From a virus, in the IMG/VR virus record IMGVR_UViG_3300046005_001038, positions 1-64,000 of that record: a stretch of 64,000 nt of DNA; one strand, written 5' to 3'. Shown piece by piece: positions 3,745-60,957 of this stretch. Position numbers and translations under genes: made by a program. The notes beneath the pieces were generated by a model that did not search any database, was not told where the DNA came from, and worked only from the letters and a program-made list of their open reading frames with translations. Each line of letters opens with the position of its first letter. Within the stretch, counting starts at the first letter, position 1.

Positions 3745-3918
3745 ATGGAAACATGGGTACTAATAATTATTTTACTTGGTGGTAACTCACCTGTGATTTC
3801 TTCAGTTGAGTTTAAAGGTAAAGAAAATTGTATGACAGCTAAATCAGATTTGCATAATTCAACTGTTATAGGACGGTCTAAAATTGACTGTTATTTGAAA
3901 TATGGAGAGTTAAAATGA
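3745..3918 (+). CDS. small membrane-anchored/exported protein (57 aa)
   Basis: METWVLIIILLGG hydrophobic N-terminus, F..KENC; AGGAG RBS; upstream TTGACA promoter. Confidence 0.55.
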   Translation: METWVLIIILLGGNSPVISSVEFKGKENCMTAKSDLHNSTVIGRSKIDCYLKYGELK

Positions 3919-4072: not shown

Positions 4073-4882
4073 ATGAAAATGAGTTTATTAAGTACGGCAA
4101 TTAAAGCAACACAAAAGCAAGGAATGCGTGCTTGTTTGTATGGTCTGGAAGGAGTAGGCAAGTCTAGCCTTGCTGGGAGCTTGAATAATACGTTATATAT
4201 TGCTGCTGAAAAAGGGTACACTAACTTAGATTTAGAACGCAATACCGTTGTTGAAATCAATGAATTTACAGATTTGTTGAACTTGTTTTCAGAAGTCAAC
4301 AGTTTGATTTCATCAGGTGAAAATAAATTTGAAAATATCGTTATTGATTCTGTATCAGCAGTAGAACGAATGTTACACAGATATATTATTAGTACCGACC
4401 CTAAGTCTGTTAATAATCCAAATATCACAATGCTCTCAGCTCTGACAGGTTATGGGTCTGCGTTTAACGTAGCTAATCGGTATTTTACGGACGTATTAGC
4501 ATGGGGGGATTTCTTCGTATCGCAAGGAATTAACTTTATTTTTACGGCACATTGTTTTACGGACGTGCAGAAGGATAGTGAATATCAGATGGAGTTCAAT
4601 TTCATTGACGTAAATTTATATTCACCCAAGTCCAGTAAAAATATAGGAACTCGCGAACTTCTCACACAATTCGTAGATTTGTTAGGATATTTACATTTTA
4701 GTAAGCCTGATAACAATAACGATAAACCTAAGCGTGTTTTAGGTGTTCAGCTTAACGATAGATACCGTGCTAAAAACAGATTTGATGTTGACGATGTTAT
4801 CACAATCCCTCGCGACAACGCTTGGAACGCTGTAGCAGACGTTATTTTAGAATGTTCAGGCAAAGACTACCGTACAACTTAA
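4073..4882 (+). CDS. Sak4-like AAA ATPase / recombinase
   Basis: Walker A YGLEGVGKSS, Walker B IVIDS, FTAH, AKNRF; near SSB and nuclease genes. Confidence 0.85.
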   Translation: MKMSLLSTAIKATQKQGMRACLYGLEGVGKSSLAGSLNNTLYIAAEKGYTNLDLERNTVVEINEFTDLLNLFSEVNSLISSGENKFENIVIDSVSAVERMLHRYIISTDPKSVNNPNITMLSALTGYGSAFNVANRYFTDVLAWGDFFVSQGINFIFTAHCFTDVQKDSEYQMEFNFIDVNLYSPKSSKNIGTRELLTQFVDLLGYLHFSKPDNNNDKPKRVLGVQLNDRYRAKNRFDVDDVITIPRDNAWNAVADVILECSGKDYRTT

Positions 4883-52287: not shown

Positions 52288-54321
52288 CTATAAAGTAACA
52301 TTCTGGCTTGTTGCATCAACAGACACTTGCCCACTTGCTAAATCAGTATTTGTAGTATTTCCAGTTACACTCAAGCTCGTTGCACGGCAACGCACGTTGG
52401 TAGATGTAGTTGCATAAATACCTTTTAAGAACCCCGTGACTGTTCCACCCTCAACCGCCACATCAGTACATCCTTGCCACCGAATACCTGTTCCAGCGGC
52501 AGTGGTATCGGATAACCGCCCAATTCTTACAATTCCGTTTGATGATGTGTTCATTCTAACAACTCCAACACCTCGATAGCCAGTGGAATAAACCTTACCT
52601 ATATCGAACTTTGATGCCGAAGGTAAATCAAGAAGGGTTATGGATGGCAAATACTGAGCATCCGCCCTAATGCACCCTATATTGACTACACCATCGTTAT
52701 TTGGACCAATAATAATAGTCGTAGGGGATGTTGAGTTGCCTGTTTGATTATGCCTCATTGCACCGATAAAACACTCACCTAACATTACTAACACAGTACC
52801 TGGGTGTCCGTATGATGTATCTATCAACTCCGATACAAGAGTTGTGTAGGCTTTGACCGTGATAACAGTGTTAATAATAGGGTTGCCTTGCGTTGATTTA
52901 CTTAATGCTTTTATTCTTGTATTGTATAAACAGCTTCTAAATGAGCCAGATGGCGGACTACCTGCTGCGATTGTTATATAACTATACCCAGTGTCCACAG
53001 TACATCCAGAAGCATTAGCTACGTCTATATAATCTATTTGAGCCAATGCGATATTTCCTGGGTTGTTAATATCCCCGATAGATATACCTCTATGTGTAAT
53101 AGACAAGCATTCTAACGAGTGAATTTTTGGTACCGTCCACGATGGTGGTGTGTAAATTGCATTTTGTGTATCTTCAATTCTAAAGTCATACAACGCATTG
53201 CTCCGTGTTCCAGCAATTTGATTAACAGTGATGTTATCAACTTTTAATCCAGAGCATCTTTTTAGCCATACACCTGTTAGCTCCTTAGATTGTGATAAAG
53301 TCTGAGCTTCTTGTAACGTCCTATCATGTGTACCGTACCCCCAGCCGTCTACGCGAATAGAGTTAACTGTTTGATTTGCGCCAATAAGATATACCCCATG
53401 ACCAGCACTATCTTTAACCCAAATATCCCCGTAGGTATTATCGTGGCAGTCTGATGAATCTACAACAAACGCCCCGTCTGTGTTGTACACTGTGCCAATA
53501 CATGGGCAATCCTCTACTATAAAGTTACCAAATTTTGTGTTTGTAATAGATGAATACATATGTACTCCTCTACCATAAATTCCTGTCAAATGTTTAGTTG
53601 CGTCTGATTTGCAAATTACGTTTAGAAGGGATAGGTCGGAGTCTTGCACCCCTATAGCTCCAAATCTATCGTAAGTGGTTATGTGTCCAGATAGTATTAA
53701 GTCAGAGAGAGCTGACGCGGTAGAAGGAAACCCTGCACTGGGGATAATATGAATCAAACCTGAGAATTCAGCCCCCTGTTGGAAGTGCATTTTAGCCTTA
53801 GAATGGCTGGAGTTTAAATTAAAGGATGTGCAGTACAGTCCAGCAACCCAATCAATAGTAATGCCAGGAACAGTGGAATTAGTTAATACATTTGCCAGGC
53901 GTGTTGCATAATCTCTTTCCCAGTATGTCCCTATTCTTGCGTTCCCCGTGCCTGAGCCAGTTGCGGCTATATTTAAAGTTGCACCCGACCCATCAGGTAG
54001 TATTGAGATTATTTTTGGAGGTGTGCCACCGTAACTACCTGTTGACAAAGGCGAACAAACTACCATGCCTATCATATTGTTGTTAAATGCCCCAGCAGAC
54101 GCAGCTAAAGTAGTTGTCGCATTAAACGTAATGTTTAATACGTCCGACCCATCTGGGTAAATACCATAACGTCTAACGTCCCCGACAGGGTAGTTAGGGT
54201 TTATAACTCCAACCTCTTTGATTGGGTACTCAGCAACAGGTGTATGAGCATACCCACCCGCAGTCCCTCTATCCTTCTTAAACTCAACGCCAGCTTTCGC
54301 CGCTTCAACTATAAAACTCAT
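52288..54321 (-). CDS. beta-helix tailspike/depolymerase-like protein
   Basis: NYPVGDVRRYG, Gly/Ser/Thr/Asn/Ile-rich beta-solenoid periodicity. Confidence 0.65.
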   Translation of the reverse strand: MSFIVEAAKAGVEFKKDRGTAGGYAHTPVAEYPIKEVGVINPNYPVGDVRRYGIYPDGSDVLNITFNATTTLAASAGAFNNNMIGMVVCSPLSTGSYGGTPPKIISILPDGSGATLNIAATGSGTGNARIGTYWERDYATRLANVLTNSTVPGITIDWVAGLYCTSFNLNSSHSKAKMHFQQGAEFSGLIHIIPSAGFPSTASALSDLILSGHITTYDRFGAIGVQDSDLSLLNVICKSDATKHLTGIYGRGVHMYSSITNTKFGNFIVEDCPCIGTVYNTDGAFVVDSSDCHDNTYGDIWVKDSAGHGVYLIGANQTVNSIRVDGWGYGTHDRTLQEAQTLSQSKELTGVWLKRCSGLKVDNITVNQIAGTRSNALYDFRIEDTQNAIYTPPSWTVPKIHSLECLSITHRGISIGDINNPGNIALAQIDYIDVANASGCTVDTGYSYITIAAGSPPSGSFRSCLYNTRIKALSKSTQGNPIINTVITVKAYTTLVSELIDTSYGHPGTVLVMLGECFIGAMRHNQTGNSTSPTTIIIGPNNDGVVNIGCIRADAQYLPSITLLDLPSASKFDIGKVYSTGYRGVGVVRMNTSSNGIVRIGRLSDTTAAGTGIRWQGCTDVAVEGGTVTGFLKGIYATTSTNVRCRATSLSVTGNTTNTDLASGQVSVDATSQNVTL

Positions 54322-54632
54322 TGTTTCACCCAATTGCTAGTTGCAGTTAAATTACCGTTTGTCCAAGTGAAAGTTTGCGTATAAGTATTGCTGTTGCTAT
54401 CTGTATAGGTATCAGAAATTAAATTACCAGAAGAATCGTAACCGAAAGAGTGATTCGTTGTTGAATTAGGATGTACAGCCAGTCCATCAGAAGCGATTAT
54501 TTGAGGAACGCCAGAATCTCCTTTTTCACCTTTATCTCCCTTTAGACCTGCGGGAAATGCTTGTACTACCGTTTGAACAACAGGGGATACTTGAATAGTT
54601 TGTTGATTTTGATTTACAATAATATCTGTCAT
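54318..54632 (-). CDS. small protein with collagen-like stretch and YD-like domain
   Basis: GLKGDKGEKGD; FGYDSSGNLISDT...YTQTFTWTNGNLT. Confidence 0.7.
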   Translation of the reverse strand: MTDIIVNQNQQTIQVSPVVQTVVQAFPAGLKGDKGEKGDSGVPQIIASDGLAVHPNSTTNHSFGYDSSGNLISDTYTDSNSNTYTQTFTWTNGNLTATSNWVKQ

Positions 54633-55006
54633 ACAATCGCTTCCGTCACTTCAGGCACAACAACAACTTTATCTTTATAATCTGCAATAGGCGGTAATAC
54701 TGTTGTGATACTTGAGCCTACTTTTTGTTGAATATCATAATAATATCGACCTACAGGAACTTGTTTGGTCACACTAGCAGGGACAGTTAAATAACAAATA
54801 CCGTTAAGTGCTTCATCATTTACATTATCACCTACAGTAGTCACAAACTGCATAGCGGCTTGAGCATCTGAATTATCATAACTCGCTTTTAATGTCAACC
54901 AAAACTTATAACCTGTAATATCAACAGCAATCCCTGCTACATCATTCACAGTTAGCTTAATGTTATAATCATCGCCTACTCTAAAGTCAGGAATCCACTT
55001 AGCCAT
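54629..55006 (-). CDS. BppU-like adaptor domain protein
   Basis: GDD..I.LT......VDITGY, G.YYYDIQ. Confidence 0.65.
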   Translation of the reverse strand: MAKWIPDFRVGDDYNIKLTVNDVAGIAVDITGYKFWLTLKASYDNSDAQAAMQFVTTVGDNVNDEALNGICYLTVPASVTKQVPVGRYYYDIQQKVGSSITTVLPPIADYKDKVVVVPEVTEAIV

Positions 55007-55016
55007 AAATTACTCC

Positions 55017-55157
55017 TTATTTCTTACGTTTAGCTTTCGCTTTCTTAGCCACAGATAGAGCGATTGCAATACTTTGCTTTTGTGATTTTCCTGATTTCAT
55101 TTCGGTTCTGATATTCGATGAAATCGTTTTCTTACTGTAACCTTTTTTAAGTGGCAT
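55017..55157 (-). CDS. small basic phage protein (46 aa, not in ORF track)
   Basis: MPLKKGYSKKTISSNIRTEMKSGKSQKQSIAIALSVAKKAKAKRKK; GAGG RBS. Confidence 0.75.
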   Translation of the reverse strand: MPLKKGYSKKTISSNIRTEMKSGKSQKQSIAIALSVAKKAKAKRKK

Positions 55158-55162
55158 GAGAG

Positions 55163-55486
55163 TTAATCCTCATTACAAATAAGAATTGCAGTTACTGTTC
55201 CAGTATTAGCAGTGACATCTAACACAATTTTGTCCGCAGATGCGATAACATGTCTACCTGTTGCAGAAAGTGTAGTTAAGGTAGCATCTTTAGCAGTTTC
55301 ACCAAAAGCATTACTTTTAACAACCACAGTAGCTGTAGCTGAAATGTGTACAACAAGCGTAGATAAAGCGGGTGCGAACAAACAGTTACTTCTAACAACA
55401 GCCGTTGTACTGTGTTTAGGTAACTTGCGTACAACACCGCTAATCGTCTGTTCAACTTCAAAGAAACTGTATGTATCGTCACTCAT
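55163..55486 (-). CDS. hypothetical structural protein
   Basis: beta-rich ORF in head module. Confidence 0.55.
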   Translation of the reverse strand: MSDDTYSFFEVEQTISGVVRKLPKHSTTAVVRSNCLFAPALSTLVVHISATATVVVKSNAFGETAKDATLTTLSATGRHVIASADKIVLDVTANTGTVTAILICNED

Positions 55487-55489
55487 ATC

Positions 55490-56038
55490 TTATACTCTGG
55501 CTAATTGTGGGAATAATTCTTTTAAATCATCAAACGACAAACCTAATTCTTCAAACTTTTTAAGTTTTTCAGAGCGTTCCATACGTTCTTTTGCTGTCGC
55601 AGCTACATAATGTGAGATTGCTTCTGCGAATTCTTCATTAGGTGTTGGTTTTACGAGCTGTGATGATAATTCATCTACTTGTTTTTGTAATTTAGCTAAT
55701 TCAGTTTCTGTAGAATCTGCTTTATTACGAAGCTCCTCGAATTCAGCACTGGCTACCGCGATTGCGGCTTTCACTTCATCTTGTGACAAAGATTGTACAG
55801 GTTCTTCAACCACAATAACTTCTTCTACAGTAGCTACGCTAGCATCAACTGGAGCAGTTGTGTACGTTGCCACAGTATCACGAGTTAACCCTAATGCGAC
55901 TTTATTGAGTGCTGAACGAGTTAATTTACTATCACCTGTTAATGCTTTAACAGCATCTAACATAGGTAAACCGTCATCTGTCCACAAGGTTGCGTCATTC
56001 GGGTCTAATGCTTTTAAAACGTCTAATAATTCTGCCAT
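55490..56038 (-). CDS. hypothetical head-associated protein
   Basis: LDP.D...WT.DG.P plus coiled coil; follows capsid gene. Confidence 0.6.
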   Translation of the reverse strand: MAELLDVLKALDPNDATLWTDDGLPMLDAVKALTGDSKLTRSALNKVALGLTRDTVATYTTAPVDASVATVEEVIVVEEPVQSLSQDEVKAAIAVASAEFEELRNKADSTETELAKLQKQVDELSSQLVKPTPNEEFAEAISHYVAATAKERMERSEKLKKFEELGLSFDDLKELFPQLARV

Positions 56039-56093
56039 TTTATATTCCTGTAAATACCCTTCCTTCACACAAAGCAAAGGAAGGGTTAAATTA

Positions 56094-57152
56094 TTAAGAT
56101 TCTTGTGTAATTAAACGAGCAATGTTGACTTGTTTGCGTTCAGGGTAACGACGCGACCAGTTAGCAGCAGTCGCTAATGCAGTATTACTTGCACCGCCTT
56201 CTGTAGCAGTACCGATGTACGAAGTACCTTCAGGTGCAACCACAAATTCTTGACGACTGTATAAGGTTTCAATACCACCACCATTACCGCCGTTAGGAGC
56301 GCGGAACACTTCACTAGGAATACGAGGAGAACCCATACCTAATTGTAATGCACCACTACCTAAGATGTAAGTGTAGTATTTACCAGCCAATCCTGTACCA
56401 GAAACACCTGCTGGCATCATATTATCAGACACAACTTCCATATCCATAAATGTTGGAATGTTACGTTTTTCTTGTGAATCAGGTACAAAAGTAATCATGT
56501 TACGTTTTAACATACGCGCATATACAACAGGGTGTACTAACAATGTACGCAAACCATCCGCACTATCACCCATTGTTGCTAAGGTATCAATCAACAATTC
56601 AGCAGAGAAACGAGTTGTATCACTTGCTGATTGTGGTGTACCTGAAGGCAAACCTGTGTTTGTTGAAGCATCATAAGTTAAATCATATTGTGTATGCGTA
56701 TCTGAACCTGATGCCGCAGCATCGTTATCAGCAAATACACCTGCTAAGGTAGCAAGGAATGTTTTTTGTAAATCCCAAGCCCAATAAGATGCTACACGGT
56801 CACCAATACCTTTTAACGGGTCTGCACCTGTTAAATCTGCTGCTAAATCAGCAGCAGTCCATGATTGGTTTCTGCTCAAGCGTTGTTGAACGATTGACGC
56901 GCCTGTAATTGCATTCGGAGTAGAAGTAGCGGTATCATCTGAACTCGATACGTTAGATACGTTACGAACTAAATCTTTGTAGAAAGGCATTGTTACAATG
57001 TTACCGCCACCAGACAAGAAATTGTCTAAGAAGCCTGAACGTGCAACAGCACCTGATTGAATGAGTTTTGATTTTTCTTGTGTGCGTAAGAACACATACG
57101 GATTAAATACTTGTGGTACTAATAACGCTGTACTTAAAGTTGCGACTGCCAT
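56094..57152 (-). CDS. major capsid protein
   Basis: VPQVFNPYV, S.LIQSG, GG..V.MPF..DL, DLA..L.G.DP...IG.RVA.YW, NW.R....K. Confidence 0.9.
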   Translation of the reverse strand: MAVATLSTALLVPQVFNPYVFLRTQEKSKLIQSGAVARSGFLDNFLSGGGNIVTMPFYKDLVRNVSNVSSSDDTATSTPNAITGASIVQQRLSRNQSWTAADLAADLTGADPLKGIGDRVASYWAWDLQKTFLATLAGVFADNDAAASGSDTHTQYDLTYDASTNTGLPSGTPQSASDTTRFSAELLIDTLATMGDSADGLRTLLVHPVVYARMLKRNMITFVPDSQEKRNIPTFMDMEVVSDNMMPAGVSGTGLAGKYYTYILGSGALQLGMGSPRIPSEVFRAPNGGNGGGIETLYSRQEFVVAPEGTSYIGTATEGGASNTALATAANWSRRYPERKQVNIARLITQES

Positions 57153-57203
57153 TTGGAAATTCCTTTATTAAATTAGTTAATTGATTTATTCATATTTCAT
57201 CCT

Positions 57204-57257
57204 TTGCCCATGCAAGTAATTGAAAGTTAATTGTGTATTGTATCTACCCATGTAGAT
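57204..57257 (-). promoter_or_regulatory. pair of AUGG-tetraloop hairpins in capsid leader
   Basis: ATCTAC-ATGG-GTAGAT and TTGC-ATGG-GCAA downstream of TTGACT-17-TAGCAT promoter. Confidence 0.6.
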
Positions 57258-57337
57258 TTATCGCTGTATGCTACACGAAAAGTATTTAAAAGTCAAGCAT
57301 TATTTAGTGTAGATGTCAAATTTATTTTCGATGAATA

Positions 57338-57495
57338 AAAAGAAACCCTTTAACAGTTTTAATTATTAAAGGGTCGAGTGTAGGAGGACTAAAAATGAGA
57401 ACAAACCAAGACTATGAAATCTTATTAAAAACTCTGTTTAGAATTCTTAATAAGATTATCTTATCTATTGCTAGAAAAAGATAATCTTAACTGGA
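57338..57495 (-). ncRNA. candidate stand-alone small RNA (~155 nt)
   Basis: TTGACA-17-AATAAT promoter (57500-57528), two long overlapping hairpins, terminator 57338-57375, no ATG on transcribed strand. Confidence 0.6.
57395..57484 (+). CDS. candidate 29-aa amphipathic peptide antisense to the sRNA
   Basis: AGGAGG-7 nt-ATG; MRTNQDYEILLKTLFRILNKIILSIARKR. Confidence 0.35.
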   Translation: MRTNQDYEILLKTLFRILNKIILSIARKR

Positions 57496-57532
57496 GGTAA
57501 TTATTTCACACTATAATCACAGTGTCAAGCAT

Positions 57533-58312
57533 TTATTTAGCTTGTTTAGATAATCTTTCCGCTAAGGTCGGGTTCTCTGTCCACATCTGTGCTTGTTCAG
57601 TTAAATTACCTGTCGCAAAAGGATTGTTGCCTTTATACGCTCCATTACCACCTTTTGCACCACCACCTACGTTATCACCCCAGTAATAAGGGTTACTTGC
57701 TTGTTGTTCACTTAACCACACTTCAAATGGCATATAACCTGTCACACCGTTGATACCGTCTTTCGTTAAGAATTTACCATCATCAGTTTCTGTGAATAAG
57801 CGTTCTGCTTTCATTAGCACGGTTTCTTCAAAACGAGGGTCAATTTTAGCAGCTTTGATTTTAGCCACAAATTCATCATTCATTCGACGTTGACGGTCTA
57901 CTTGTTCAAAGTACGCAACACGCTGTTCTAATTCAGCCGCTTTCTTAGAAATTGCATCACGTTCAGCCATCAAAGGTTGTGTTTGACTTTTTGCGCGTGC
58001 ATTTGCCATTTCTTCTAACTTAGCTACATCTACCGTAGAACCTTTCGCTAATTCTTCTAATTCAGCGATTCTCGCTAATTGTGCTTGTACAGATTCAGGG
58101 TCTAATTCGCCAAAATGTGATAACTTCGCTTTGACTTGTTTGTGGTCATTGCGTTCTTTTTCTAATGCGCCTTGCACTTTCGTGAATTCACTTAACGGTT
58201 TCACACCTGCTACATCCAACACATATTTGCTACCATCAGCCGTTGGTGTGTAGAATGAATGTAGTGTTTCATCTAATGAATCTAAACTTGTAATTTCGTA
58301 TTCTAATGCCAT
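57533..58312 (-). CDS. capsid scaffolding protein
   Basis: Y....DG.KY.LDV.G, ALEKER, coiled coil, GGGAKGG..NPF; between portal and capsid. Confidence 0.85.
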   Translation of the reverse strand: MALEYEITSLDSLDETLHSFYTPTADGSKYVLDVAGVKPLSEFTKVQGALEKERNDHKQVKAKLSHFGELDPESVQAQLARIAELEELAKGSTVDVAKLEEMANARAKSQTQPLMAERDAISKKAAELEQRVAYFEQVDRQRRMNDEFVAKIKAAKIDPRFEETVLMKAERLFTETDDGKFLTKDGINGVTGYMPFEVWLSEQQASNPYYWGDNVGGGAKGGNGAYKGNNPFATGNLTEQAQMWTENPTLAERLSKQAK

Positions 58313-58333
58313 TTTAATATCTCTCGTTTTGTC

Positions 58334-58370
58334 GGACACCATTGCCCATTTTGTGAACCACCATTGGTTC
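58334..58370 (-). promoter_or_regulatory. pair of AUGG-tetraloop hairpins in scaffold leader
   Basis: GAACCA-ATGG-TGGTTC and GGGCA-ATGG-TGTCC. Confidence 0.6.
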
Positions 58371-58446
58371 GGTAAGTTGAGTCTTTTATTATCCTGTGTC
58401 TACTCAGCACAGTTCGATGCAACTTGTTATACTGTCGTGCTTCAGT

Positions 58447-59952
58447 TCAATCTCCGTTAATCGGGTCATTATTCACAGTAACACGGTCAACATTCATCGA
58501 TGCTGTCGGTTGTTGTACTCCGTTACTTGAATTATCAGGAACTTCTATCGGAGGAGATAAGTCATCCTCTTTCATTAACTTACGTTCTTCTTCATAACTA
58601 AGTTTCGTATAACCTTGGTCTTTAAGAATTGTATGAACTGTTTTATCAGCTAACGGTAATAAGCCTGTATTTTTAGCAGCAATCAACTGTGCAAAGTCTT
58701 GACCTTTCATATCTTTGTCAGAGAACTGTAAGTTAGGAATAACTTCAACTTTTGAATCATCTAATCCCATCCATCTAGCACACTTCTTCAACAATTCTTC
58801 GAGTGCATAAGCAGATGTGACAGCAACTTGATTTAAGTTAGCCGTTTGTGCAGCCATACGAATTTTAAGTGCGTCACCTGATTCTTGTTTAGAATTTCCA
58901 TTCATCAACTGACCAGCTTTTGTCACAGCCGCTTGTTTATCGTTCTCAATTGCTTGACGCATTTCAGCCAAACCAGATGAACTCACACCGATAAACTTCG
59001 CATCACCACCCATATCAACATCAATTCTTGCACCTGCGCCAACACGAGTTGCTTCGTCTTGTCCATGACTAATACCACCTACCACAACTAAGGTATCTTG
59101 TCCTTGCATATACAAAGTGTGACGATAATCCGCTTCAGCCCGATAGATGGCAAGTGATAGATTCGCTAAACCTAATAACGGTGGTACATCAGGTGTCGCT
59201 AAAATATCTTTCGAGTTAGCGAACACAAAGGGGATTTCATTTAAGGATTGACCACGATAAATAGGTGTCACGAAGGATTCTAACGTAGGATTTTCGTTTG
59301 AATAGTTCATCACAGATTGTGAATATGTTGCATTCTGATAATCTTCTTCATTCACATTAAAATCACCTAACGCTAAGAACCGATAGCGAGGTTGTTCTGA
59401 CCATGACACCCCTTGTCGCATCCATGTGGTTTCGTCCAACACAACTAAGTTAAGGGCATTAAATCCTACGTTGTCAGAACCTTCATCCCAATTGACGATG
59501 TTTTCTGCATTGTACATTGCAATATACGGATTACCACTACCACTTGAGTCAATATCTAGCAATAAACCTACACGACCTGTAATGAACTGTTGTGAATGAA
59601 TTCTACGCAATAAATGGTCTAAATTATCACCGTTAATCGTCGCTTTAGTACGCAAGAATTCCATTTCTGGCGGTAATTTGATTTGTGTCGGTCTATAGTG
59701 TAACAATCCGATATAACTTTCGACTGCATCATGCACAAAGTTGTGATAGACAGCGCGTTTCTTATAAGATTCATAGGACTTATAACCATCTTCACTAACA
59801 CTCATTCCATCTAAAACTTGACCGCCTGTAGCAGGTAAATACGTCTGTCCTTTAGATTTAACTTGTTTCTCACCTTTGTAACAATCACGCATAATCAACC
59901 AATCTTCGATTGATTCATCATATAGCGGATGTGTTGAAACTGTGCTTGTCAT
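58447..59952 (-). CDS. portal protein (DUF4055-like)
   Basis: HP.Y....W...RD...GE..VK..G..YLP, Y..Y..RA, IPFVF, PPLL.LA.L.LA.YR..ADY. Confidence 0.9.
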   Translation of the reverse strand: MTSTVSTHPLYDESIEDWLIMRDCYKGEKQVKSKGQTYLPATGGQVLDGMSVSEDGYKSYESYKKRAVYHNFVHDAVESYIGLLHYRPTQIKLPPEMEFLRTKATINGDNLDHLLRRIHSQQFITGRVGLLLDIDSSGSGNPYIAMYNAENIVNWDEGSDNVGFNALNLVVLDETTWMRQGVSWSEQPRYRFLALGDFNVNEEDYQNATYSQSVMNYSNENPTLESFVTPIYRGQSLNEIPFVFANSKDILATPDVPPLLGLANLSLAIYRAEADYRHTLYMQGQDTLVVVGGISHGQDEATRVGAGARIDVDMGGDAKFIGVSSSGLAEMRQAIENDKQAAVTKAGQLMNGNSKQESGDALKIRMAAQTANLNQVAVTSAYALEELLKKCARWMGLDDSKVEVIPNLQFSDKDMKGQDFAQLIAAKNTGLLPLADKTVHTILKDQGYTKLSYEEERKLMKEDDLSPPIEVPDNSSNGVQQPTASMNVDRVTVNNDPINGD

Positions 59953-60131
59953 TAAATAGCTACCTCAACGGCTTCTACTACTACGTCGTCTACTTCAGGA
60001 TTAGTCAATACATCAACAATCGTTTCAGCAATCTTTTGTGTAGCAATGCCTTCTACGGCAGAGCCTACATCTTTAGCTGCGTGTTCGATTCCGTGTTCTG
60101 CTTTTTTTAACGCTTTACTGATTTTACTCAT
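59952..60131 (-). CDS. small helical hypothetical protein
   Basis: MSKISKALKKAEHG...; TAATG-coupled to portal. Confidence 0.55.
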   Translation of the reverse strand: MSKISKALKKAEHGIEHAAKDVGSAVEGIATQKIAETIVDVLTNPEVDDVVVEAVEVAI

Positions 60132-60140
60132 ATTCACCCC

Positions 60141-60701
60141 TTAATTATTAAAATTATCTATGCTATCTTCTAAATATAAAAATTCGCCAAAATACAGATG
60201 CGCTGCTTCACAATACTTACTATACGCTTCTTCTGCTGTATCAAACAAGCCTAAGTTTAAACGTACTGAATTTACAGTTATTCTCGCTCTAAACTTGTTA
60301 CTTTTAGTTGCAGTAACTCCTTTGAACCCAGTAGTGTTATTTATTTGTCTTTTTGAATGCTGATGATTTTCAGTATGTGTGCAATTTCTGATATTTTCAA
60401 TTCTGTTATCTGATGTATTGAAGTTAATATGGTCTATATGATTTGGGTCTGTACCGTATATCATTTTGTACACTATTCTGTGCGCTCTATATTTTATACC
60501 GTTTATTTTTATTGCAATATAACCTCTAGTTCCAGCAACACCTGCCTTTTTATTAGCGTTTTTAACATTCCAAGCGTTAGTATATTGCATATTTTTGAAA
60601 TGACTTAACGGTCTTTCTTTCCAATACAACTCTCCTGTTTCAGAATCGTAATTGAAACATTCATGTAGATAACTCTGTTCTGGTAATAATTTAATTTTCA
60701 T
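60141..60701 (-). CDS. HNH-AP2 homing endonuclease
   Basis: AHRIVY, IDHIN...DNRIENIR, GFKGV, LGLFDTAEEA. Confidence 0.9.
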   Translation of the reverse strand: MKIKLLPEQSYLHECFNYDSETGELYWKERPLSHFKNMQYTNAWNVKNANKKAGVAGTRGYIAIKINGIKYRAHRIVYKMIYGTDPNHIDHINFNTSDNRIENIRNCTHTENHQHSKRQINNTTGFKGVTATKSNKFRARITVNSVRLNLGLFDTAEEAYSKYCEAAHLYFGEFLYLEDSIDNFNN

Positions 60702-60957
60702 CTGTTTCACTTCTAACTACATTATGTCCAGCTACTAATGCTAGCGAACCTATCACAATCTTGGTTGCTGTTTCGGAATCAATCTCTAAAGAATAGGTCA
60801 GAATGATTGGGATTATAATTATTAAACCTTGATAAGTGCTAGGTTCTTGTAGCCTTTTTCTTATCCATCTTGAAATAAAATTAGATTTTACATCTGAACT
60901 ACTGTTGGATTTCTGTAGTGTTTCTGTAACTAATTTAATAATCTCTTCTTCTGTCAT
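60691..60957 (-). CDS. holin-like two-TM protein
   Basis: WI..RLQEPSTY.G motif, two hydrophobic segments. Confidence 0.6.
   Translation of the reverse strand: MTEEEIIKLVTETLQKSNSSSDVKSNFISRWIRKRLQEPSTYQGLIIIIPIILTYSLEIDSETATKIVIGSLALVAGHNVVRSETDEN

Follow-up and report, generated by a model that had tools for sequence, protein, structure and literature searches.

How phages set the amounts of their scaffolding and capsid proteins is known only in outline. Phage T4 encodes two translational repressors, RegA and gp32, that bind the initiation regions of several messages. For phage P22, the scaffolding protein gene is reportedly autoregulated post-transcriptionally, as Wyckoff and Casjens are said to have found in 1985, and to our knowledge the RNA target of this autoregulation has never been defined. 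Here we describe a candidate RNA signal for the same class of genes in the first 64 kb ("the window") of the 79.8-kb virus record IMGVR_UViG_3300046005_001038, a genome that CheckV rates as complete. The signal consists of four small hairpins that carry the same tetraloop, AUGG, on different stems, two of them in the leader of the scaffolding protein gene (57533..58312, minus strand; PHROG 206) and two in that of the major capsid protein gene (56094..57152, minus strand; PHROG 247). Judged by comparison with related phages, these hairpins are copies of a conserved cis-acting RNA element on the head-gene messages of a large group of tailed phages; that they would be operators for a trans-acting reader, probably a phage protein, with control over how the scaffold and capsid mRNAs are translated or how stable they are, is a proposal for which we see the balance as about even.

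The scaffold leader holds hp1 (58355..58370, minus strand; GAACCA.AUGG.UGGUUC), with its loop 52 nt before the scaffold AUG, and hp2 (58333..58348, minus strand; (U)GGGCA.AUGG.UGUCC(G), 5-6 bp including one G.U pair), with its loop 30 nt before that AUG. In the capsid leader, hp3 (57242..57257, minus strand; AUCUAC.AUGG.GUAGAU), which corresponds to the family hairpin P1, has its loop 99 nt before the capsid AUG, and hp4 (57204..57215, minus strand; UUGC.AUGG.GCAA), which corresponds to P2, has its loop 59 nt before it. A first-pass annotation of this DNA had placed four ATGG-loop hairpins at these minus-strand positions, and the sequence together with the minimum-energy folds of both leaders, which contain all four, bears it out; the distances it gave are likewise correct with the scaffold start at 58312 (a conserved start, reading MAL...) and the capsid start at 57152. 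The overall stability of the two leaders is unremarkable (z of -0.6 and -1.2).

Over the whole 79.8-kb genome, the minus strand has seven ATGG-loop hairpins with a stem of at least 4 bp, five of which lie inside the 1.2-kb head region; only three have 6-bp stems, and each of these belongs to one of the two leaders. The fifth hairpin of the cluster (58240-58229) is within the scaffold gene, is not kept in relatives and constitutes background; the remainder of the genome has a few weak, unconserved ones. Clustering by itself does not decide between hairpins and chance: in a look-elsewhere test on Markov-2 random genomes, which admitted all 256 tetraloops on both strands, a cluster of five arose in 7/60 genomes and three 6-bp stems in 11/60. 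The case for the hairpins thus rests on comparison.

Our survey of the family covered 80 IMG/VR loci (GC 35-68%) with 59 distinct, i.e., nonredundant, capsid leaders, in which ATGG is by far the commonest tetraloop, closing 37 hairpins of at least 4 bp versus 10 for the next loop. These hairpins stand at fixed places from the capsid AUG, P1 at -84 to -99 and P2 at -52 to -64 (in the family about -90 and about -58; window loops at -99 and -59), with P2 being the most constant element of the family; at least one hairpin is present in 59/64 leaders and at least two in 37/64. The pentamer CATGG occurs 76 times at -100 to -41 (58 leaders), and the 300 nt to each side of this stretch are nearly free of it. 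For an unbiased test of the stems, CAYGG sites were selected by position only, and a stem of at least 3 bp flanks 61.5% of them, versus 6.6% of those elsewhere on the sense strand and 4.5% of those on the antisense strand. At pairs 2 and 3 of these stems G.U is enriched (0.29/0.20) and A.C depleted (0.03/0.09), and the hairpin structure thus belongs to the RNA of the sense strand and not to double-stranded DNA.

Covariation points the same way. In an alignment of 16 sequences, picked for possessing the inner three pairs, 83.9% of cells pair, compared to 58.2% in shuffles. The covariation score comes to 0.767; shuffles give 0.223 (0/500 reach the observed value) and slid controls 0.10-0.18. Helix 1 (P1) is 95.8% paired in this alignment, and both sides change in 5/6 P1 pairs. 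Over 553 kb, the covariance model built from it (R1) returned 37 matches, none of them antisense and only one outside the capsid and scaffold leaders; in the 64-kb window, its sole match on either strand is the P1-P2 module itself (57201..57261, minus strand; 30.3 bits, E 6e-4). Three further features of the capsid leaders were seen in passing: (i) the capsid start of family loci L058-L125 reads C-AUG-G in 41/58 and CC-AUG in 21, with the C at -1 unexplained by the protein; (ii) in many high-GC members, P2 is followed, ahead of the Shine-Dalgarno sequence, by a third hairpin (type GGCUUCGAGU...ACUUGAGCC) that the window clade, with its A/U-rich leader, lacks; and (iii) in L055 (2838-2870), in L135 (about 95-125) and in the capsid leaders of L095, L098 and L113, the first AYGG/AUGA hairpin is long and is followed by a U run.

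Among close relatives, two sets share the architecture of the window: the L001, L004 and L005 types, with capsids about 60% identical, and L075 and L109, with leaders nearly identical to that of the window. All four stems change compensatorily among these relatives and the loop is constant. Hairpin hp1 is identical in L075 and L109; in a lake-water relative with a loose end at 58378 it reads GAATCA.ATGG.TGATTC as opposed to GAACCA/TGGTTC, a double compensatory change, and at its position the L001-type phages carry GACTGACA/TGTTAGTC or ACTAGCA/TGCTAGT. For hp2, L075 and L109 have GAACA.ATGG.TGTTC and the L001-type relatives have GGCTA.ATGT.TAGCC, the latter with two compensatory pairs. The arms of hp3 are ATCTAC/GTAGGT in L001 and ACCTGC/GTAGGT in L004, i.e., the change proceeds via a G.U intermediate, and hp4 is CAC.ATGG.GTG in L001, L004, L075, L109 and the lake-water relative, again with two compensatory pairs. 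The L001-type phages have a third scaffold hairpin, TTTTAAAG.ATGG.CTTTAAAA, in which the AUG of the loop is the scaffold start codon; their first scaffold hairpin is in the portal reading frame, at the 3' end of the portal gene, with no promoter ahead. As a separate observation, L075 and L109 are mosaics with respect to window positions 56094-58400: their scaffold (phmmer E 1e-85 to 1e-115), the small-RNA unit described below and the capsid leader are close to those of the window, their capsids are only 47-49% identical, and the leader appears to be a recombination border.

Scaffold leaders across the family are arranged in a comparable manner. AYGG hairpins of at least 4 bp stand at about -50 and about -30 in 28 of the 56 distinct scaffold leaders, matching hp1 and hp2 of the window at -52 and -30, and the hairpin at about -50 frequently reads CA.AUGG.UG. 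In 10/56 the scaffold start codon lies inside a hairpin loop, the layout of a classic translational operator. Five different covarying stems hold the start in this way (TAAGAC/GTCTTA, AGGC/GCCT, TGAGAC/GTCTCA, TTGAGAG/CTCTCAA and TTTTAAAG/CTTTAAAA), and the noncoding spacer after the Shine-Dalgarno sequence covaries with codons 2-4. This covariation around the start codon is the strongest pointer to translation control.

The loop itself is less rigid than the first-pass annotation had it. Homologous hairpins in both leaders carry ACGG in the E. coli phages Skure, SLUR63, HdSG1 and JenP1 and in Pantoea phage Vid5, and the same hairpin is closed by ACGG in JenP1 and by ATGG in HdSG1; U and C vary even within one genus. 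From these sequences, the loop consensus is A-Y-G-G, with position 2 simply a pyrimidine and position 4 sometimes A or U. A concerted U-to-C switch had been considered as proof of a co-evolving reader and is weakened by the difference between JenP1 and HdSG1 at the same hairpin. The paired operators that the annotation proposed, for a protein that might coordinate head-protein stoichiometry, are partly upheld, insofar as a conserved, strand-specific RNA with a fixed loop on free stems recurs in two leaders and holds the start codon in 10/56, and are to be amended in that the loop is A-Y-G-G and not strictly AUGG. Its exclusion of CsrA stands, the loops AUGG and ACGG being followed by G, U or C without a conserved GGA. 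The loop persists over the full GC range of 35-68% and over hosts from Vibrio and Pseudomonas to E. coli.

Pattern searches here and in related phages found strong hairpins in the two leaders only for both the window genome and Skure; a search of the entire Skure genome for C(ACGG)G hairpins gave one in the scaffold leader, at 3783, two in the capsid leader, at 4725 and 4749, and none elsewhere. The motif is linked to homologous scaffold and capsid genes that are separated by an untranslated spacer, and it is absent in family members without such a spacer (Jerseyvirus ZCSE9, Serratia phage Eta and SPP1); the gene layout of SPP1 offers no leader to carry it. P22, invoked by the annotation as precedent, is ruled out as a member, as it has neither scaffold/capsid leaders (its spacers being 13 nt and overlapping) nor any such hairpin, and its start region does not fold. 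Rfam held no matching family for a phage head-gene leader motif, with nothing relevant at E up to 10 for window positions 54000-60000 and nothing at E up to 1 for ten related loci, and no description of the motif was found in the literature searched; the AYGG element is thus undescribed in both. In Vibrio phage VspDsh_1 (L140), the hairpin GCTGC.ATGG.GCGGC (26434-26447, minus strand) has in its loop the start codon of the large tail gene VspDsh1_33, and in some phages the motif may reach beyond the head genes.

A fixed loop on freely varying stems is most simply accounted for by a trans-acting factor that reads the loop. We propose that the AYGG hairpins share one reader, for which an RNA-binding protein encoded by the phage is the most plausible choice. 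It would bind either as a dimer or cooperatively (as suggested by the paired sites) and would couple the translation and/or the lifetime of the scaffold and capsid mRNAs. On the scaffold mRNA, where sites abut the ribosome-binding site or, in many relatives, contain the start codon, occupancy would block initiation. On the capsid mRNA, hp3 would also be the 5'-terminal stem-loop of a transcript from a dedicated promoter; as the sites lie 58-99 nt upstream, an effect of occupancy on stability or leader folding would be likelier there than direct occlusion. That a protein reads the hairpins, which protein it would be and the direction of its effect are points that we infer; the candidates are the scaffold, the capsid protein, a 46-residue basic protein (55017-55157; PHROG 2423) and a host factor.

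Several points weigh against such a reader: (i) at 58-99 nt from the AUG, the capsid-leader sites are too distant for a direct ribosome block; (ii) no hairpin of the window encloses the conserved scaffold start at 58312, i.e., the start-codon feature of RNA-phage operators is missing there; (iii) VspDsh_1 has several further AYGG hairpins inside structural genes, and the restriction to two leaders is not absolute; (iv) hp3 also fits the role of a protein-independent 5' stabiliser; (v) the P1 loop is constrained in part by complementarity to the -10 region (see below), which could account for some of its conservation without a reader; and (vi) in some relatives a long P1 with a U run looks as though it also serves the upstream gene as an intrinsic terminator.

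With respect to candidate readers, the window scaffold is homologous to the scaffolds of all motif-bearing relatives, and its N-terminal domain of about 70 residues, which the SPP1 scaffold lacks, is conserved in every motif-bearing phage; the Jerseyvirus scaffold displays only weak C-terminal similarity, which does not settle the presence of this domain. A structural model of the domain (pLDDT 83) matched no solved fold, and no sequence match was found in the PDB. The domain may be the reader, as a lead only, its co-occurrence with the motif being confounded by phylogeny. For the small basic protein, a Pfam search found nothing and Atlas gave a DUF6496-like lead at 0.93. One could further speculate, tentatively and with far more doubt than belief, that unassembled scaffold reads the AYGG loops via this N-terminal domain on its own and on the capsid message, thereby matching synthesis to procapsid assembly, and that other phage groups follow the same logic with other fixed loops. 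If this were so, the hairpins would constitute the missing RNA side of a head-protein feedback circuit.

The alternative that survives best, although we consider it unlikely, dispenses with a reader. In such a protein-independent leader, hp3/P1 would be a 5' stem-loop that protects the capsid mRNA from 5'-end-dependent decay, the other hairpins would tune folding or ribosome access, and the loop would be kept for folding or for its complementarity to the -10 region. Its attraction lies in the promoter-like box upstream of hp3 (57268..57296, minus strand; TTGACT-17-TAGCAT), from which the transcript is predicted to start about 4 nt before the hairpin; with a start about 7 nt after the -10 box, hp3 would be a 5'-terminal stem-loop beginning at about +4. 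P1 likewise begins 2-10 nt past the -10 box in the window, L092, Skure, HdSG1 and MiCath, and established stabilising 5' stem-loops are known from the ompA and T7 gene 10 leaders. Moreover, a segment overlapping the -10 box (anti-P1, UUCGUGUAG; 57271..57279, minus strand) can pair with the 5' arm and loop of hp3 through 9 bp including G.U, an extent reached by 0/300 shuffles, and covarying anti-P1 complementarity is significant in 17/32 related leaders.

The alternative anti-P1 helix can form only in RNA that is read through from upstream, and in the window such read-through should be rare because a predicted terminator (57375-57344) closes a separate small-RNA (sRNA) unit between the scaffold and capsid genes. 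Against a protein-independent leader, P2 and the scaffold hairpins are neither 5'-terminal nor accompanied by an anti-sequence, yet have the same loop; P2 often has just 3-4 bp and is weak alone; AYGG is not among the known extra-stable tetraloops; and the same loop at four sites in one phage, and across GC contents of 35-68%, is hard to ascribe to folding alone. As for the promoter box, it is kept in L001-type relatives and is also present in unrelated viral contigs with no hairpin behind it, such that the hairpins are not part of the promoter. In such contigs (L018-L024, L026, L030, L031, L036 and L037), the box (57268-57300; aatgcTTGACTTTTAA..A.TTTT.GTGTAGC.TA) recurs near letter-for-letter ahead of a different gene, which suggests a shared host or a shared promoter class.

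A second alternative, which we rate as distinctly unlikely, is that the nascent hairpins act on RNA polymerase, either with a factor in the manner of nut/boxB or without one in the manner of put, to allow terminator read-through or to block Rho on an untranslated leader. Two hairpins directly behind a promoter would suit this function, as would the terminator-like hairpins that flank the scaffold and capsid genes in relatives and the window terminator at 57375-57344, which precedes the capsid promoter. Against it, the AYGG loops are tetraloops with no boxA-like or other conserved linear partner in alignments A1, A2 and A5, the sites are limited to two late head genes and are not behind every promoter, the first scaffold hairpin of the L001-type phages lies in the portal frame with no promoter ahead, and a start codon in the loop points to translation instead. 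The hairpins do not resemble intrinsic terminators themselves, there being no T run behind any of the four in the window.

Hairpins at gene borders, including that at the portal 3' end in L001-type phages, together with a P1 that ends the scaffold message in some relatives, might instead be processing or decay sites where an endoribonuclease of the host or the phage divides the portal-scaffold-capsid message into parts of unequal stability; with stems too short for RNase III and a capsid gene whose own promoter leaves no need of a cut to free its message, we find this quite improbable. Very improbable, in turn, are start-codon decoys, standby sites or loop-loop kissing via the palindrome CAUG. 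The loops do read AUGG like the scaffold and capsid starts (and 41/58 family capsid starts are C-AUG-G), but the homologous hairpins of E. coli and Pantoea phages carry ACGG, where ACG is no start codon and CACG lacks self-complementarity, and this takes start-codon mimicry and CAUG self-pairing out as causes of the conservation; in addition, no Shine-Dalgarno sequence lies ahead of the loops, and the small open reading frames (ORFs) from loop AUGs are not conserved. Upstream ORFs as such were also rejected: the ORF opened by the hp1 loop AUG stops 1 nt before the scaffold AUG and that of the L001-type phages ends 2 nt before it, the hp2 loop AUG shares the frame of the scaffold ORF and is not its conserved start, the encoded peptides show no conservation, and an open stretch of 16-17 codons is likely to arise by chance. 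Lastly, chance palindromes or double-stranded DNA operators for a transcription factor are barely credible and, as far as sequence analysis reaches, refuted, for although clustering alone arises in 12-18% of random genomes and a promoter is close to the sites, the arms are not alike from site to site and covary (unlike the half-sites of DNA operators), G.U is enriched and A.C depleted on one strand only, and fixed positions are kept in dozens of distant phages.

The window genome (GC 36%) is present as DNA in lake-water metagenomes. Upstream of the scaffold gene lies the portal gene (58447-59952, minus strand; PHROG 145), directly upstream of which is an HNH homing-endonuclease gene (60141-60710, minus strand; PHROG 99, Pfam HNH_3). 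The window capsid shares 44-50% identity with its counterparts in known siphophages that infect Pseudomonas, Vibrio, Xanthomonas, Sphingomonas and E. coli (Queuovirinae in many cases) and about 30% with the SPP1 and Jerseyvirus capsids; its nearest relatives, P0002 (88%) and P0003 (86%), are outside the comparison set. A megablast of the region against phage records gave no match, a search for P0006 in viral contigs found nothing, and a metagenome scan yielded only two further loci, both of the L001 type.

The sRNA unit between the two head genes (57335-57528, minus strand) is predicted to stand alone, with a promoter (TTGACA-17-TGaAATAAT) and the terminator at 57375-57344. The predicted RNA of about 160 nt folds with a z of -5.4; its promoter, terminator and an unpaired CAU-N8-10-(C)CUCC segment (anti-start plus anti-Shine-Dalgarno) are kept in the L001-type phages, L075 and L109, and its stems differ. 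Pairing of the AYGG loops with this neighbour was considered and rejected, the window sRNA having no CCAU or CCGU, and a 29-codon plus-strand ORF opposite the sRNA was likewise discarded, not being conserved in L001 or L004.

Ultimately, it is precisely the messages for scaffold and capsid that these phages mark with a compact RNA signal, one that is easy to mutate. Some phages of the motif group can be cultivated, on E. coli, Pseudomonas and Vibrio (Skure, JenP1, HdSG1, MiCath and VspDsh_1), which makes the question of a reader directly testable; in metagenomic phage contigs, the AYGG motif would also allow transcript starts and the borders of head genes to be better annotated.

In relation to known systems, the autoregulation of the P22 scaffold concerns the same problem (the supply of head proteins), the same class of gene and post-transcriptional control; it differs in that P22 lacks the leaders and hairpins and in that its scaffold proteins are not detectably related to those of the window family. 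The nut boxB sites of lambda and P22, read by N, and the put RNAs of HK022 also present free stems with fixed loops behind promoters, put being formed of two stem-loops. Those sites belong to early operons and act on RNA polymerase, with boxB being a GNRA-like pentaloop accompanied by boxA, whereas the AYGG sites are found on two late head genes only and can have the start codon within them. The 5' stem-loops of ompA and T7 gene 10 resemble hp3/P1 in that a strong dedicated capsid promoter is followed, within a few nucleotides of the start, by a stem-loop; they need no set loop, whereas the AYGG loop is fixed and is repeated internally and on a second gene. Neither T4 RegA, with its unstructured sites, nor gp32, with its pseudoknot, uses repeated fixed-loop hairpins. 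The operators of the RNA phages MS2, Qbeta and PP7 offer a further comparison. The phages described here are tailed double-stranded DNA phages with 2-3 sites per gene on two genes, the capsid sites lie far upstream of the ribosome-binding site, and there is no bulged adenine; what is alike is a small hairpin whose stem is free and whose loop would be read specifically, and which in 10/56 relatives contains the start codon. In the RNA phages a structural protein regulates translation, and the same would hold for the head genes of these tailed phages if the scaffold or the capsid protein were the reader.

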